Origin: a bacterium
GTDB taxonomy: Bacteria; Patescibacteriota; Minisyncoccia; UBA6257; GWB1-50-10
NCBI GenBank assembly: GCA_021824045.1
Contig: JAKALR010000001.1
Location: 1 to 62,730, forward strand
Reading direction: 5' to 3'
Length of the DNA: 62,730 nucleotides
The position numbers and the translations under genes were made by a program. Under the pieces are notes generated by a model. That model worked only from the letters and a program-made list of their open reading frames with translations, searched no databases and was not told the origin of the DNA. How positions within the stretch are numbered: position 1 is the first letter of the stretch; every line of letters begins with the position of its first letter. Of this stretch, positions 12,060-62,467 are shown in pieces.

Positions 12060-12105
12060 TGCGGAATACGGGAATCGAACCCGTGTCTCAACCTTGCCCC
12101 ACACC
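12060..12105 (-). pseudogene. orphan tRNA 3' half (from anticodon position 36) preceded by GGTGTGGGG
   Basis: Minus-sense GGTGTGGGG-CAAGGTTGAGACACGGGTTCGATTCCCGTATTCCGCA: anticodon-loop 3' side, T-arm and acceptor 3' strand, with no 5' half nearby. Confidence 0.7.
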
Positions 12106-12133
12106 AATCAAGGATTGAAAACTCTTATTCTTG

Positions 12134-12204
12134 TGCGGGTAAGGAGAATCGAACTCCTGTCTCAACCTTGGGAAGGTCGCATTCTACCACTAAACCATAC
12201 CCGC
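12134..12204 (-). tRNA. tRNA-Gly(CCC)
   Basis: Manual fold: GCGGGTA/TACCCGC acceptor, anticodon arm CGACC-TTCCCAA-GGTTG, T-arm AGGAG-TTCGATT-CTCCT. Confidence 0.9.
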
Positions 12205-38345: not shown

Positions 38346-38978
38346 TTAGTATACCACTTCGGGAGTCTTGATGCCGTCCGTCCCAAGAACTTTGAATTCC
38401 ACGCCGTCAGTCGAGATTTTCACGAAGGCGGTGTTCGTGATGTCCATCGTTTTGAAGGTTTCGTAGGTGCCGAAACCGACATGGATCAGAAATGCTCTTA
38501 TGATTCCTCCGTGACTCACGACAAGGACGGTTTTCCCGGGATACGCCGCGGCGATTTCTCTCAAGAATGTTATCATGCGGCTGGCCATAGTTTCGTTGTT
38601 TTCCATACCTTCGGGGTAAACGGCGTTGAGTTTGGTTTTGTCTAACAATTTTTCCAATCCAGCCCTGGCTTCTCTGATCTTCTCGTCAAGTTTTTCGATG
38701 TTACTGCCGTCTAACTTGCCATAATCCCTTTCTTTTATAATGTCGCGCGTTTCAATCGCCAATTCTTTCTCGGCGGCTATTATTTCAGCTGTTTGTCTGG
38801 CCCTTATGAGGTTCGAAGAGAAAACGGCATCGAAAGGGATGTCTTTTAATTTTTTTGCCGTTTCGGTCGCTTGCAATTTGCCGTTCTCGGTTAAGGGTGG
38901 ATTTCCTCCCACTGTCCTGCCGACGTTACCTTCCGATTCGCCGTGCCGAACCAGGTAGATGGTGCAAAAATTATCCAT
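38346..38978 (-). CDS. histidine phosphatase family protein (phosphoglycerate mutase-like)
   Basis: IYLVRHGESEGN catalytic motif. The track N-terminus is tRNA sequence, so it was trimmed to ATG 38978. Confidence 0.85.
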   Translation of the reverse strand: MDNFCTIYLVRHGESEGNVGRTVGGNPPLTENGKLQATETAKKLKDIPFDAVFSSNLIRARQTAEIIAAEKELAIETRDIIKERDYGKLDGSNIEKLDEKIREARAGLEKLLDKTKLNAVYPEGMENNETMASRMITFLREIAAAYPGKTVLVVSHGGIIRAFLIHVGFGTYETFKTMDITNTAFVKISTDGVEFKVLGTDGIKTPEVVY

Positions 38979-39052
38979 GGTGGGCAATACAGGGATCGAA
39001 CCTGTGACCTCTTCGATGTGAACGAAGCGCTCTACCACTAAGCTAATTGCCC
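38978..39052 (-). tRNA. tRNA-Val(CAC), CCA encoded
   Basis: GGGCAAT/ATTGCCC acceptor, anticodon arm CTTCG-TTCACAT-CGAAG, T-arm ACAGG-TTCGATC-CCTGT. Confidence 0.9.
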
Positions 39053-57691: not shown

Positions 57692-58399
57692 TTATAGTTC
57701 CCTTCCGATAATCCTGAGGGCTTTTCCTATCTTTTCCCTCTTTCTTGAAAGACAAACTACGCCTTTATTGTAATATAATTTTGATAATAACTTCAAGGAA
57801 TCGGTCTTGGCGTATTTTAGCTGGTACACTGAATCATTGATGCTCTTGGTGATGTGGCCACGTGCGCCGAACAACTCTTCTATCTTGACTCGTAGCCACT
57901 CAATGTGTACTTTACTAGCCGAAACAAAAGCTGTGTAAAACATAAAACTGGAACGCCATCTCGGATCCCAATAAGAATAAAATGTCCCATCACCGTCGAG
58001 ATGACCTCGGATAAAGTCAGAAAAATATTTTTTGGGGATTTTAATTGCTCCGATTGTCTTTGATTTCGCCGGCGTAAGGCCAATTGTTATAAGAAATTTA
58101 TAAAAATTAACGTCGCCAAATTGGACGTGTGGCGACTGTTTATGAGTAAAGCCGGATGTTTTATAACTGATTTTCACTTGAATGCCAAGGCATTTCATAA
58201 AGTTATCAAGTTGTTCCATATCATTGGATGTGAAATCGATGTGCCGACCATCCGGAGACAAATTTCCATCGGTTGCAAGAAGTCCCATGGCGTAAGCAAA
58301 ATGAGGTGACCACCGAATGGCCACTTTCCCCTGCGGTTTCGTTCCCCTCTTCCCCATCTCACTTTCATTATACCTCAAATAAAAACCCCGCTCGTCCAT
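57692..58399 (-). CDS. LAGLIDADG-family homing endonuclease-like protein, free-standing
   Basis: Two LAGLIDADG motifs (GLLATDGNLS, GHLDGDGTF). The stop codon ends 2 nt before the tRNA-Leu 5' end. Alternative start at 58357. Confidence 0.8.
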   Translation of the reverse strand: MDERGFYLRYNESEMGKRGTKPQGKVAIRWSPHFAYAMGLLATDGNLSPDGRHIDFTSNDMEQLDNFMKCLGIQVKISYKTSGFTHKQSPHVQFGDVNFYKFLITIGLTPAKSKTIGAIKIPKKYFSDFIRGHLDGDGTFYSYWDPRWRSSFMFYTAFVSASKVHIEWLRVKIEELFGARGHITKSINDSVYQLKYAKTDSLKLLSKLYYNKGVVCLSRKREKIGKALRIIGREL

Positions 58400-60306: not shown

Positions 60307-60585
60307 TTAATTCTCCTCCTCCTCTTCCAGAAAGTCGTCCATTTCTTTCTTGATGCTCTTCAGCTGTTCGCTTTCAACCTTCCGCAGTTCGCGGAGGGCT
60401 TCTTTTGTTTTTTCCTTCGCCCGTTCGATGAGCGGAAGATATTTCTCGCTGATGATCCGTTCCGCCTCTTTTTTATCGGGCGTCGTTTCCAGGACCTCCT
60501 CTATTTTTTTCATGATCTCGTCCTCGCCATCCATTGCTTGGCGGAGCACGTTGTATTCGTCACTTTTGAGCGTCCGATCATCCAT
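60307..60585 (-). CDS. hypothetical acidic coiled-coil protein
   Basis: 92-aa E/K-rich ORF. Confidence 0.4.
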   Translation of the reverse strand: MDDRTLKSDEYNVLRQAMDGEDEIMKKIEEVLETTPDKKEAERIISEKYLPLIERAKEKTKEALRELRKVESEQLKSIKKEMDDFLEEEEEN

Positions 60586-60597
60586 GGCTTAATGCTA

Positions 60598-60879
60598 TTA
60601 TATTCTCGACCGGTGGAGCCAATTCCACAAGGCGGCGAAGACCCAACCGAGGACATATCCGATGGCGGTTGTCACGATAACGAGCAGAATGGCCGTTCCC
60701 CAGGCAAAATTCCCTATGGTATAGGGAGGATGTATGAAGTGCAACCCGAAAATCCAATCCATGATTGGCTGAGCTAATCCTATCAAAACTAAAAACGCCC
60801 AGAATGCATGGCATAATCCAAGAAAAACTCCGAATACCACCCCCGACTTATTCTTGTCTAATGAGTTCATATTTTTCAT
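60598..60879 (-). CDS. hypothetical membrane protein
   Basis: Three hydrophobic helices. The track N-terminus overlaps tRNA-like sequence, so it was trimmed to MKNMNS. Confidence 0.5.
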   Translation of the reverse strand: MKNMNSLDKNKSGVVFGVFLGLCHAFWAFLVLIGLAQPIMDWIFGLHFIHPPYTIGNFAWGTAILLVIVTTAIGYVLGWVFAALWNWLHRSRI

Positions 60880-60910
60880 AAATATGCGACCTTTTGAAGT
60901 ATTGATTTTG

Positions 60911-61259
60911 TGGACCTGGGGAGAATCGAACTCCCGGCTCCTCATTGTTCCCGCACTTTCCCGAGCAGGGGCGAGGTTTTAAGTGTGCAATCCCGTACAA
61001 TGTGGACCGTAGCGGATTCGAACCGCTGACCTCCTCATTGCAAATGAGGTGCTCTACCAACTAAGCTAACGGCCCCTTTCTTGAATTTAAGTATAAAAAA
61101 AGCACAGAATTCTCGCAAACCGCCTAGAAATGAGCCGCCACATCGTACGGGACAAAAGCGGTATTCTTCCGGGGCAAAATTACTTATATATAAATCACCG
61201 TAGGTACTTATCCGTTGAAAGCAAAATCGTTTGTTTTCAACCCACTGAACTATAGGCCC
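60911..61259 (-). pseudogene. degenerate tRNA-like shell Y enclosing tRNA-Ala
   Basis: 5' part: GGGCCTATAGTTCAGTGGG, a 74-nt insert, then GAATACCGCTTTTG. Helix TCCCGTAC (61145-61152) pairs with GTACGGGA (60991-60998). 3' part has T-arm GGGAG-TTCGATT-CTCCC and acceptor CAGGTCCA (G3:U70 possible). Confidence 0.55.
61003..61075 (-). tRNA. tRNA-Ala(UGC)
   Basis: GGGCCGT/ACGGTCC with G3:U70, anticodon loop TTTGCAA, T-arm AGCGG-TTCGAAT-CCGCT. Own promoter-like TTGCGA-17-TATACT at 61090-61118. Confidence 0.9.
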
Positions 61260-61271
61260 TCCGTCACATCA

Positions 61272-61550
61272 TGGTGGGCATGGAAGGAATCGAACCTTCG
61301 ACCTCTGTCTTACTTGCCCCGCACCAAAATTGCGCTTTTCATGTCTGTGCGCGTGAATGGAATCGAACCATTGACCTCTGTCTTATCAGGACAGCGTTCT
61401 ACCACTGAACTACACGCGCAATTTTCGGTGCGGGGTCAGGCAGCGTTCTTCCGGGGTGAAAATGCCATATATAACTTAGCATAAGTATTCACCCGTTGAA
61501 AGCAAAGTTTCTTGCTTTCAACCCACTGAACTACATGCCCATTATTTTTC
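61272..61550 (-). pseudogene. interrupted tRNA-Ile(GAU)-like shell X enclosing an intact tRNA-Ile
   Basis: GGGCATG..CATGCCCACCA acceptor pair. 83-nt insert in the D-loop (61449-61531). Insert after anticodon nt 35 is bounded by CCCCGCACCGAAAATTG / CAATTTTGGTGCGGGG. One base is missing in the anticodon stem. Confidence 0.65.
61348..61419 (-). tRNA. tRNA-Ile(GAU)
   Basis: GCGCGTG/CACGCGC acceptor, anticodon arm CTGTC-CTGATAA-GACAG, T-arm AATGG-TTCGATT-CCATT. Confidence 0.9.
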
Positions 61551-61727
61551 ATTTCGAACGAACGAACCAGTCATATCGAAGATATCAGGACAGCATTCTT
61601 CCGGGGCGAAAGCGCTACTCTACTGCATGACTCCTTTTAAGGGGAGTTCGGTGAGACGAAAAAGTGGGTAAAAGACTTGGCCTAAGCGGCCCGGAGCGCA
61701 CACTTTTTCGGCTTGCCGAGCTCCCCC
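61551..61727 (-). other. partial third copy of the tRNA-linked module plus a stem enclosing a terminator-like palindrome
   Basis: Contains ..CGCCCCGGAAGAATGCTGTCCTGATA (Ile-like D-stem/anticodon fragment). Stem GGGGAGCTCGG (61716-61726) pairs with CCGAACTCCCC (61641-61651). Palindrome at 61659-61708. Confidence 0.5.
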
Positions 61728-61728
61728 A

Positions 61729-61941
61729 TTACTGGGTTAAGTTTAATTTTTCGAAGCCCTGGATGTCAAATTGCACGTTTTGGGGCTGCGTCGGCGGCAG
61801 CTTCAGGGTCGCGTTGATGCTGTCGGCGAGCGAGGTCACAAAATAGAAGACAAGAATCAGGGTCGCCGCGAACATCACGAGCGCGAGAAGGATAAAAAGG
61901 TTCTGTCGGGAATTTTTGAGACTCTTGAGCTTGCCGATCAT
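61729..61941 (-). CDS. small hypothetical membrane protein
   Basis: 70 aa with one TM helix. Confidence 0.4.
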   Translation of the reverse strand: MIGKLKSLKNSRQNLFILLALVMFAATLILVFYFVTSLADSINATLKLPPTQPQNVQFDIQGFEKLNLTQ

Positions 61942-61942
61942 G

Positions 61943-62467
61943 TTATTGGTAAAATACTTTTCCCCGTACGGCCATGTTGATGGACCCGTCCCCCTGCGGG
62001 GTGAAAGTTACTCCGTCGATGGAGTCCAGATATTTGAAATGCTCGAGAGAATCGAGGAATGTCAGGAGATCGCTGAGTTTCGAAGAGCCGACCGAAAGAT
62101 TGAAATTGATGGATCCGAAGCCGCTCGAGGTTTTCGGGTTTTCGCCGGCGAAGGAGAAGGAATAGCTGAGATTCTGTCCCGCAGCAATGGATTGGATGTC
62201 CTTGTTCAGATTGATGAGGTCGTAGTAGGACGGGACGATGTTGTTGAGGACGTTTTCGTAGCCGGCGATTTGGTTGTACTGCGACTGGAGCTTCGAGTAT
62301 TCAAGTATTCCGTTCGACATGGTAATCAGTTTGGACCGCGCGAGCGTGATGTTTGCGGCATACGTATCGATATTCCCCTTGAAAAACAAGATTCCTCCGA
62401 TGAGCGCTGCTATAATGATAAGAGATACGGCCAGTTCGTTCGTGAGACGTTTGTTGAAATGATTCAT
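61943..62467 (-). CDS. hypothetical membrane-anchored protein (PilO-like architecture, weak)
   Basis: N-terminal TM, then coiled coil, then a beta-rich C-terminus. Confidence 0.45.
   Translation of the reverse strand: MNHFNKRLTNELAVSLIIIAALIGGILFFKGNIDTYAANITLARSKLITMSNGILEYSKLQSQYNQIAGYENVLNNIVPSYYDLINLNKDIQSIAAGQNLSYSFSFAGENPKTSSGFGSINFNLSVGSSKLSDLLTFLDSLEHFKYLDSIDGVTFTPQGDGSINMAVRGKVFYQ

Follow-up and report, generated by a model that had tools for sequence, protein, structure and literature searches.

What raises a question in the 62,730-nucleotide (nt) stretch of DNA analyzed here (the window; GenBank contig JAKALR010000001.1, coded contig C25 of the 612-kb, 97.7% complete genome G000, with other genomes coded G001 upward) is a module, consisting of the 5′ part of a tRNA gene and a structured insert in its D-loop, that recurs near the end of this contig of a patescibacterium. 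Why should part of a tRNA gene be kept there repeatedly with the same insert? An Ile and an Ala version can be delineated, each with a complete tRNA of the same anticodon nested within it. The module thus represents the 5′ portion of an outer, disrupted tRNA gene, designated the shell, around that complete tRNA. An earlier note on this DNA, made from the letters alone, had missed both the downstream 3′ half that completes each shell and the intact same-anticodon tRNA inside. The insert is considered moderately likely to be a protein-less mobile element of Parcubacteria-type bacteria of the candidate phyla radiation (CPR), one that takes part in a recurrent turnover in which tRNA genes are disrupted and replaced.

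Anatomy of the two shells

All features of the locus (shells, inserts, and cassettes) lie on the minus strand. The module is laid out as a tRNA 5′ part (nt 1-19), a core of ∼70 nt made of two adjoining hairpins, and the 3′ strand of the D-stem. The repeat reported in the earlier note is genuine, as a repeat search aligned 74 nt at 80% identity between two full copies; copy 1 likewise exists, with its coordinates having been placed about 10 nt off. The tRNA-Ile shell and its upstream region are made up as follows, where X-type denotes one of the two tRNA-Ile alleles described below.

61740-61769, minus: promoter-like TTGACA-18-TAAACT, within the end of the upstream gene
61436-61540, minus: full module copy 1 (tRNA-Ile shell)
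61523-61540, minus: nt 1-18 of the X-type tRNA-Ile shell, GGGCATGTAGTTCAGTGG (GGGCATG TA GTTC AGTGG)
61454-61522, minus: two-hairpin insert core, intact copy, 69 nt (covariance model match, 96 bits)
61495-61522, minus: hairpin 1 of copy 1, 12 bp
61454-61494, minus: hairpin 2 of copy 1
61436-61453, minus: nt 21-35 of the Ile shell, CGGAAGAACGCTGCCTGA, read as CGGAA + GAAC (D-stem 3′ strand) + G + CTGCC + TGA
61317-61435, minus: helix-flanked Ile cassette, in the anticodon loop of the shell
61420-61435, minus: leader strand of the Ile cassette, CCCCGCACCGAAAATT
61348-61419, minus: intact tRNA-Ile(GAU) (ARAGORN and Rfam, 76 bits)
61317-61331, minus: trailer strand of the Ile cassette, AATTTTGGTGCGGGG, complementary to the leader
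61275-61312, minus: 3′ part of the X-type Ile shell, TAAGACAG-AGGTC-T-arm-CATGCCC-A, beginning with TAA + GACAG (Rfam partial tRNA, 28.9 bits)

The 3′ part at 61275-61312 closes the outer cloverleaf, in which all seven acceptor positions of the 5′ strand pair with CATGCCC at 61276-61282 (7/7) and the T-arm and G18G19 are intact. The anticodon stem is one base short on the side of nt 21-35, and this stretch (61436-61453) has the same sequence in G002 and a single change in G003. The leader and trailer of the cassette form a duplex of −28.5 kcal/mol. The promoter-like site at 61740-61769 is conserved in G001, G002, G003, G004, G005, and G008, and it probably drives the entire tRNA cluster. After the end of the Ile shell there is a gap of fourteen bases, which is followed by the Ala architecture.

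61152-61259, minus: full module copy 2 (tRNA-Ala shell)
61242-61259, minus: nt 1-18 of the tRNA-Ala shell, GGGCCTATAGTTCAGTGG (GGGCCTA TA GTTC AGTGG)
61171-61241, minus: two-hairpin insert core, decaying copy (covariance model match, 84.5 bits)
61152-61170, minus: post-insert stretch GGAAGAATACCGCTTTTGT, shell nt 21-35, diverged
60992-61170, minus: shell nt 21-35 plus cassette, in the anticodon loop of the shell, with an 11-bp helix (arms CCCGTACGATG and CATTGTACGGG)
61090-61118, minus: promoter-like TTGCGA-17-TATACT in the Ala cassette
61003-61075, minus: intact tRNA-Ala(UGC)
60911-60947, minus: 3′ part of the Ala shell, CAATGAGG AGCC GGGAG TTCGATT CTCCC CAGGTCC A, ending in CAGGTCCA

Nucleotides 1-18 of the Ala shell differ by one base from the unsplit tRNA-Ala(UGC) of G003, and the 3′ part, which retains G3.U70, is 95% identical to the 3′ part of that unsplit gene. 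The Ala insert has an A.C mismatch in hairpin 1 and has lost the pairing of hairpin 2 (z = −0.16), and pairing is lost in the anticodon stem of the shell as well.

Structure and covariation of the insert

Hairpin 1 consists of 12 bp around a conserved AAAGCAA/TTGCTTT core, which is invariant while the outer stem pairs covary. Hairpin 2 has the base GGGYRAA/TTYRCCC and an AT-rich loop with TATA-like runs. The fold predicted for copy 1 (−37.3 kcal/mol, z = −4.65) is a three-way junction that the D-stem closes. A covariance model of the insert was built from 9 copies at first and from 14 copies later, and the pairing statistics were obtained from the 14 copies and 20 stem pairs with 500 shuffles and slid-partner controls. 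In this set 94.6% of the stem cells were paired, compensatory changes were found at 8 of the 20 pairs, none of the 500 shuffles was as good, and pairing with slid partners fell to 31-57%. The hairpins drawn in the earlier note were thus borne out by covariance (8/20 pairs compensatory, 0/500 shuffles equal). The insert has no match in Rfam, as a scan of window positions 60500-62200 at E ≤ 5 gave only tRNA-type matches, and a promoter scan called no sigma-70-type promoter within it.

Distribution and genomic context

The covariance model matched in 13 of 96 genomes of the family, in 19 of 151 in a sample of the order, and in 29 of 151 in a sample of the class. The exact hairpin-1 motif was sought in 185,579 species genomes, where it occurred on 19 contigs, all from Patescibacteria metagenome-assembled genomes (MAGs), and the relatives with the insert motif are Patescibacteria or Parcubacteria-type MAGs. 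It was not found in viral contigs, and a viral origin of the insert was rejected on the absence of the exact motif there. Confinement of the module to this locus by simple tandem duplication, which the earlier note had named as what would refute its idea, does not apply since the insert is present in dozens of genomes.

Sixty-four insert copies were inspected for context across genomes. The great majority (48/64) adjoin a tRNA gene, all but one of these in the sense orientation (47/48), and in the tRNA copies the core directly follows G18G19 and is in turn followed by NGGA and the D-stem 3′ strand. The shells are of at least 11 amino-acid types (Ile, Ala, Val, Thr, Gly, Lys, Asn, Phe, Pro, Leu, and Ser), and an intact tRNA of the matching type lies within about 600 nt of the tRNA-context copies wherever the contig allowed. 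At each such copy inspected, displaced tRNA fragments flank an intact gene with the same anticodon. Two arrangements recur. The nested layout seen in the window is also found for Ile in G002, G003, G085, and G315, for Thr in G166 and G246, and for Val in G005 and G007, where the cassette has the same CCCCGC.CC/GGTGCGGGG helix as the Ile cassette. The tandem layout, which comprises tRNA nt 1-19, the insert, GAGC, a small hairpin with a GAA loop, a spacer, and the intact gene, is present in G166, G221, G156, G174, and G177, and in G221 it forms an array of 168-bp repeats. This last genome also has near-identical inserts in a tRNA-Lys and a tRNA-Asn gene, and in G101 the intact tRNA is located in the loop of hairpin 2.

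The remaining copies (16/64) are outside tRNA genes, and about 7 of them are within palindromes of G289 that resemble repetitive extragenic palindromic (REP) sequences. This REP-like palindrome (GTCATTCCCGCGGAGGC..GCCTCCGCGGGAATGAC; e.g., loci L139-L143 and L134-L138) has about 55 copies, and about seven carry the insert in the 5′ arm. When filled and empty palindromes are compared, the core is seen to follow GCGGAGG, and AGG recurs beyond it, which suggests a 3-5 nt AGG/GGAGG repeat that may be a target-site duplication. At locus L087 (G228:C23:143972-144046) the insert is in frame in a tsaD-like open reading frame (ORF) of 412 residues, where it is closed by an 11-bp stem.

Relatives, empty sites, and horizontal movement

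The syntenic site in G004 and G008 is in a plain state, with the same promoter, one tRNA-Ile, and one tRNA-Ala. The two inserts of G000 are 77% identical to each other and each is 82-84% identical to copies in other genomes, the arms of the Ala shell match the unsplit tRNA-Ala of G003, and those of the Ile shell match the unsplit tRNA-Ile of G004. This favors separate hits, rather than a local duplication, as the apparent source of the full copies in the window. The earlier note had left the choice between site-specific insertion and duplication of the whole module; it is insertion that is favored, by the same D-loop site in many tRNA types and genomes, and duplication is not.

Two tRNA-Ile alleles are present in the genus, X with the acceptor GGGC(A/G)(T/C)G and Y with the acceptor GCGC(A/G)TG. 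The Ile locus of G001 has a Y shell with the insert and X nested, that of G003 has an X shell with the insert and Y nested, and that of G000 has the remnant of a Y shell and then an X shell with the insert and Y nested, which amounts to a three-layer doll. Three-layer nesting is likewise seen in G019 for tRNA-Thr. The nested genes appear to be alleles that are native in sister species, because the inner tRNA-Ala of G000 shares 99% identity with the tRNA-Ala native to G004 and G008, and the inner tRNA-Val of G003 is the same as the unsplit, native tRNA-Val(CAC) of G000 (window 38978-39052, minus strand; syntenic locus).

How these states are distributed among species was judged from a flanking gene, by which G003 groups with G008 and G005 (95-97% amino acid identity, 72-74% at four-fold sites), G000 is sister to these three at 75-76% amino acid identity, and G002, G001, and G004 are more distant. 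G003 has the nested Ile unit, and G008 and G005 have an unsplit X gene with the bases of the G003 shell arms (C6.A67 and C55). A shell cannot regenerate an intact gene and horizontal movement is therefore needed; the patchy distribution of the insert requires horizontal spread as well. Compared with the Ile unit of G000, that of G003 is 84% identical and that of G002 is 88% identical, where the four-fold sites of the neighboring gene are 55 and 31% identical, respectively. Shell nt 21-35, including the gap in the anticodon stem, are common to G000, G002, and G003, and the outer arms follow the host. What is found is thus the pattern of a homing element, with a shared interior, host-specific flanks, and an occurrence that conflicts with species relationships. 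Gene conversion from the inner tRNA was considered as the cause of shell conservation and fails, as nt 21-35 of the G003 shell differ from the inner tRNA.

The half copy and the oldest layer

Upstream of the X-type shell is what remains of a third copy, with the following features.

61583-61630, minus: remnant of the Y-type tRNA-Ile shell, the oldest layer, starting with a decayed 5′ part
61599-61611, minus: half copy, last 13 nt of the insert, TTTCGCCCCGGAA
61583-61598, minus: half copy, D-stem 3′ strand and 5′ side of the anticodon arm, GAATGCTGTCCTGATA
61541-61582, minus: leader arm, TCTTCGATATGACTGG...AAATAAT, 93% identical to G001
61641-61726, minus: dispersed hairpin repeat, 86 nt with 26-nt arms (z = −4.41)

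The partial third copy that had been noticed earlier is real (TTTCGCCCCGGAA and GAATGCTGTCCTGATA at 61583-61611). G001 retains a complete module at the orthologous place, and by alignment to it ∼75 nt were lost internally in G000 (most of both the tRNA 5′ part and the insert), so the half copy is an internal-deletion derivative of a third, older Ile shell. The leader arm at 61541-61582 pairs in G001 with a trailer past the nested tRNA, and this trailer is lost in G000; the arm is the leader of the cassette by which the X-type tRNA-Ile once entered the Y shell. Two details of the earlier description have to be revised accordingly. What was taken for a decayed T-arm (GGTTCGTTCGTTCGAAAT) belongs, as its 5′ arm, to the helix of leader and trailer around the nested tRNA of G001, and the 11-bp stem with a terminator-like palindrome is the separate 86-nt dispersed repeat at 61641-61726, which is outside the module. 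The genome of G000 has 11 copies of this repeat and that of G001 has many, one of which, orthologous to the copy in the window, precedes the Y shell.

A further family of hairpin elements of ∼135 nt occurs in G000 (C2:1826, C17:2859, C24:12242, C30:1960, C31:3819, and C32:126), with the ends CCCCCACACC.../...GGTGTGGGGG and flank repeats of 3-4 nt (TTTA, TAA, TGA, TATG). These ends are similar to the helix arms around the nested tRNAs (CCCCGCACC, CCCCGTACC), and because of this resemblance the tRNA cassettes may be cargo-bearing members of the ∼135-nt family.

Proposed mechanism and alternative explanations

In the disrupt-and-replace reading, the insert would land one-way directly after G18G19 in the D-loop of a tRNA gene, and occasionally in other hairpins, and the gene that bears it would become a dead shell. 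Such a shell would persist because a functional gene for the same anticodon is located inside or beside it, which in this genus would be in a helix-flanked cassette within the anticodon loop and in other lineages would be a restored tRNA copy directly downstream. The history of the window would then comprise three hits, namely the old Y-type Ile shell, the X-type Ile shell, and the Ala shell, and the X-type tRNA-Ile would have replaced the Y-type before it became itself the shell that nests tRNA-Ile(GAU). In this genus, insert, shell nt 21-35, and cassette seem to travel as one unit between host-derived arms, which is the simplest reading because nt 21-35 are common to G000, G002, and G003 while the outer arms follow the host. 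The unit might enter a resident tRNA gene through gene conversion of a homing-like kind or through structure-specific insertion catalyzed in trans, and the strict orientation and fixed position would imply an asymmetric recognition that is site-specific or structure-specific. The hairpins would be kept either by continued spread of the unit or by a need for local folding of the transcript that spares the nested essential tRNA.

Several observations weigh against mobility of this kind. Most genomes have only 1-2 copies of the insert (G246 has 13 and G289 has 10); the insert lacks terminal inverted repeats, its ends being the feet of two unlike hairpins; its flank signature is GG on both sides only (..GTGG, core, NGGAAGAAC); the units of the window contain no ORFs; no matches to Y1 transposase, TnpB-type, reverse transcriptase (RT), or HNH (PF01844) were found in the insert-rich G246 and G289; and the above-neutral conservation and compensatory changes between the orthologous-looking copies of G000, G002, and G003 fit a host function. 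It is conceivable, if doubtful, that the turnover goes further and represents a cleave-and-rescue style drive on essential tRNA genes. The unit (insert, nt 21-35, and helix-flanked tRNA) would then spread between CPR species and destroy the resident gene at 19/20 and 35/36, the sequence-diverged rescue copy would be immune to whatever cuts the resident allele, and the X and Y alleles of tRNA-Ile would invade each other alternately to give the Russian-doll layers. The insert would in that case serve as the cis-acting end of the unit or as a disruption that shields it from re-cutting.

A host function as an RNA is unlikely: the insert, at first an insertion, would together with the shell halves be a structured pre-tRNA domain that insulates folding or on which RNase P, RNase Z, or RNase III could process the transcript to release the nested essential tRNA. 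The Ile unit is 84-88% identical in G000, G002, and G003 despite near-saturated neutral sites, compensatory changes separate these apparently orthologous copies, and the insert occupies position 20 of the D-loop, a site that is exposed to solvent in tRNA structures. Moreover, the sole conserved promoter is upstream of the shell and the nested tRNA-Ile would therefore be transcribed through the insert, and the only decaying copy (Ala) is upstream of a cassette with its own promoter-like site. Against this are the patchy distribution, with the sisters G004 and G008 making the same tRNAs without shell or insert, the copies in non-tRNA hairpins and in an ORF, and the decay and deletion of insert copies. 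That the insert is instead a DNA-level signal for the nested gene (a promoter, operator, or recombination site), neither mobile nor a functional RNA, is improbable. The invariant AAAGCAA/TTGCTTT core amid covarying outer pairs and the TATA-like runs in the AT-rich loop of hairpin 2 would suit such a signal, but no sigma-70-type site is called in the insert, the conserved promoter is upstream, covariation points to selection for pairing, and the copies in REP-like palindromes and in an ORF have no gene to serve.

Could the outer tRNA be functional and the insert its intron, with insert and cassette excised and the halves ligated as in archaea? The 7/7 acceptor, together with the intact T-arm and G18G19 of the Ile shell, would allow this, and G000 has intron-bearing tRNA genes (judged from sequence), but it is very improbable: neither EndA nor RtcB is found in G000, a group I intron would be far larger than the insert, which has no Rfam match, the anticodon stem is one base short in the Ile shell and unpaired in the Ala shell, the shells decay and are partly deleted, and the outer tRNA is redundant since an intact tRNA with the same anticodon is always present. 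Least credible of all is a local tandem duplication of an insert-carrying tRNA 5′ half followed by decay. The presence of three copies within 460 nt, the third truncated, is what such an event would leave, but the shells belong to different tRNAs (Ile and Ala) with arms that match the unsplit genes of relatives, the copies are not mutual nearest relatives, the insert is found at other loci in more than 40 genomes, and the half copy is orthologous to the full module of G001.

Search for splicing and mobility enzymes

Neither EndA (PF01974) nor RtcB (PF01139) gave a match in G000 at 97.7% completeness, with profiles whose controls matched in four archaea (PF01974) and in 10 genomes (PF01139). 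The borders of the insert are in an open D-loop at a three-way junction and the helix of the cassette has 3 flanking nt on one side and 7 on the other, neither of which is a bulge-helix-bulge. A group I intron has a conserved catalytic core (P3-P9) and usually exceeds 200 nt; the insert has ∼70 nt, two simple hairpins, and no match to an Rfam intron. A kink-turn at the cassette junction was also considered and dropped, because the Val and Thr units do not preserve the GA/GA pattern.

The transposase candidates (Y1_Tnp, TnpB-type, RT, and HNH) were rejected, as they do not track the insert-rich genomes; PF01797 (Y1) matched only in G000 and G127 and not in G246, G289, or G221. The units contain no integrase gene, the sole Phage_integrase domain of G000 being on contig C9 in a Xer-like gene, and no endonuclease ORF is in or next to the units of the window. 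The tyrosine-recombinase domain on C9 (28304-30097) is split by about 425 residues in a single 723-residue frame, which could be due to an intein or another insertion. Three small GIY-YIG ORFs of G000 are a lead only as enzyme candidates and were set aside for the insert, as they sit in a different family of hairpin elements. A double-motif LAGLIDADG endonuclease ORF (window 57692-58399, minus strand) ends 2 nt before tRNA-Leu(GAG), and it was discarded as a candidate with no shell remnants seen around it. In G027 (locus L085, C2) a 549-nt insert containing a group-I-like core and an HNH ORF interrupts a tRNA-Asn gene at 35/36, and two tandem insert units lie upstream; this HNH is a lead only.

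Other tRNA genes of G000 are also unusual. Inserts of ∼200 nt are present in the anticodon loops of two (C2:30868-31142, Phe, and C19:340-600), and these, like the 549-nt insert of G027, look like group I introns. At 12060-12204 of the window (minus strand) lies another replacement scar, in which tRNA-Gly(CCC) precedes a helix arm, TTGATTGGTGTGGGG, and then the 3′ remnant of an older tRNA-Gly, CAAGGTTGAGACACGGGTTCGATTCCCGTATTCCGCA, and from which the 5′ shell part is gone. At C19:700-960, an older tRNA-Lys holds in its D-loop, after AGTTGG, a tRNA-Lys(UUU) enclosed by a CCCCGTACCAAATTTAT/ATAAATTTGGTACGGGG helix, and the D-arm of the older gene has a small GC-clamped hairpin too. A tRNA with the anticodon CUA (C28:54998-55071, labeled Pyl by ARAGORN) adjoins tRNA-Ser(CGA) and could be a TAG suppressor or an artefact.

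Comparison with known systems and significance

The literature searched contained no description of nested bacterial tRNA genes or of the two-hairpin insert, and it is useful to ask which known systems they resemble. Nearest to them are integrative elements that target tRNA genes, homing elements, and the palindromic elements of Rickettsia type. According to what Williams is said to have reported in NAR in 2002, tRNA genes serve as attachment sites and the integrative elements carry a copy of the displaced tRNA segment. Elements that use tRNA sites include phages with tyrosine integrases, islands, and integrative and conjugative elements. As in those elements, the target is a tRNA gene, a displaced fragment remains by the restored gene, and repeated hits can be stacked; unlike them, the units here are 0.1-0.3 kb without an integrase, the hit is in the D-loop or anticodon loop, and the repair consists of a whole nested tRNA or a new 5′ part. 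The palindromic elements of Rickettsia, reportedly described by Ogata and colleagues in 2000, and MITE-like repeats (MITE stands for miniature inverted-repeat transposable element) are similarly short, protein-less, hairpin-forming, and multiplied in some genomes, and the insert resembles the Rickettsia elements in that it is found within genes for RNA and, in one case, within a protein gene in frame. As expected of a MITE, many copies, no ORF, and both filled and empty sites are found (G246, G289, G221; empty in G004 and G008), but the insert has no terminal inverted repeats, strongly prefers one tRNA position and orientation, and always comes with a replacement gene. Palindrome-associated transposable elements (PATEs) derived from IS200/IS605 also have two hairpins, no ORF, an orientation-specific placement by a short target, and no clear target duplication; the two hairpins of the insert, however, are dissimilar, and Y1 transposase has no match in the genomes with most copies.

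Host-specific arms around a shared interior, spread among related genomes, and a conserved essential target are also features of homing, of which the intron-less homing of SegB in the tRNA gene cluster of phage T4 (PMC2330249) and SegB-driven segmental amplification (PMC13096335) are examples. The parallel extends to the relative G027, with its HNH-bearing group-I-like intron in a tRNA gene with tandem insert units. Unlike homing elements, rescue here is by a spare gene and not by splicing, and there is no endonuclease gene by the units of the window. Disrupted tRNA genes of archaea and red algae have multiple or non-canonical introns or are split or permuted, and EndA and a ligase, which act on a bulge-helix-bulge, repair them at the RNA level (PMC3728597, PMC3978253). 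They too are interrupted in the D-loop and anticodon loop by helix-forming inserts, but here both enzymes were not found and the outer gene is redundant and decaying.

For annotation, the consequence is that tRNA finders catch the inner genes only and leave shells and inserts unannotated, and that these could be misread as bacterial tRNAs that are split or carry introns. The insert is a compact and easily modeled marker with which to map the turnover across metagenomes and to seek the enzyme. The data show that tRNA alleles are frequently replaced horizontally between related ultra-small bacteria. If the disrupt-and-replace reading is true, selfish DNA of CPR bacteria can hit single-copy essential tRNA genes by bringing or creating a spare, and this would be a third solution beside the two that are known, self-splicing (introns and inteins) and integrase-mediated restoration.

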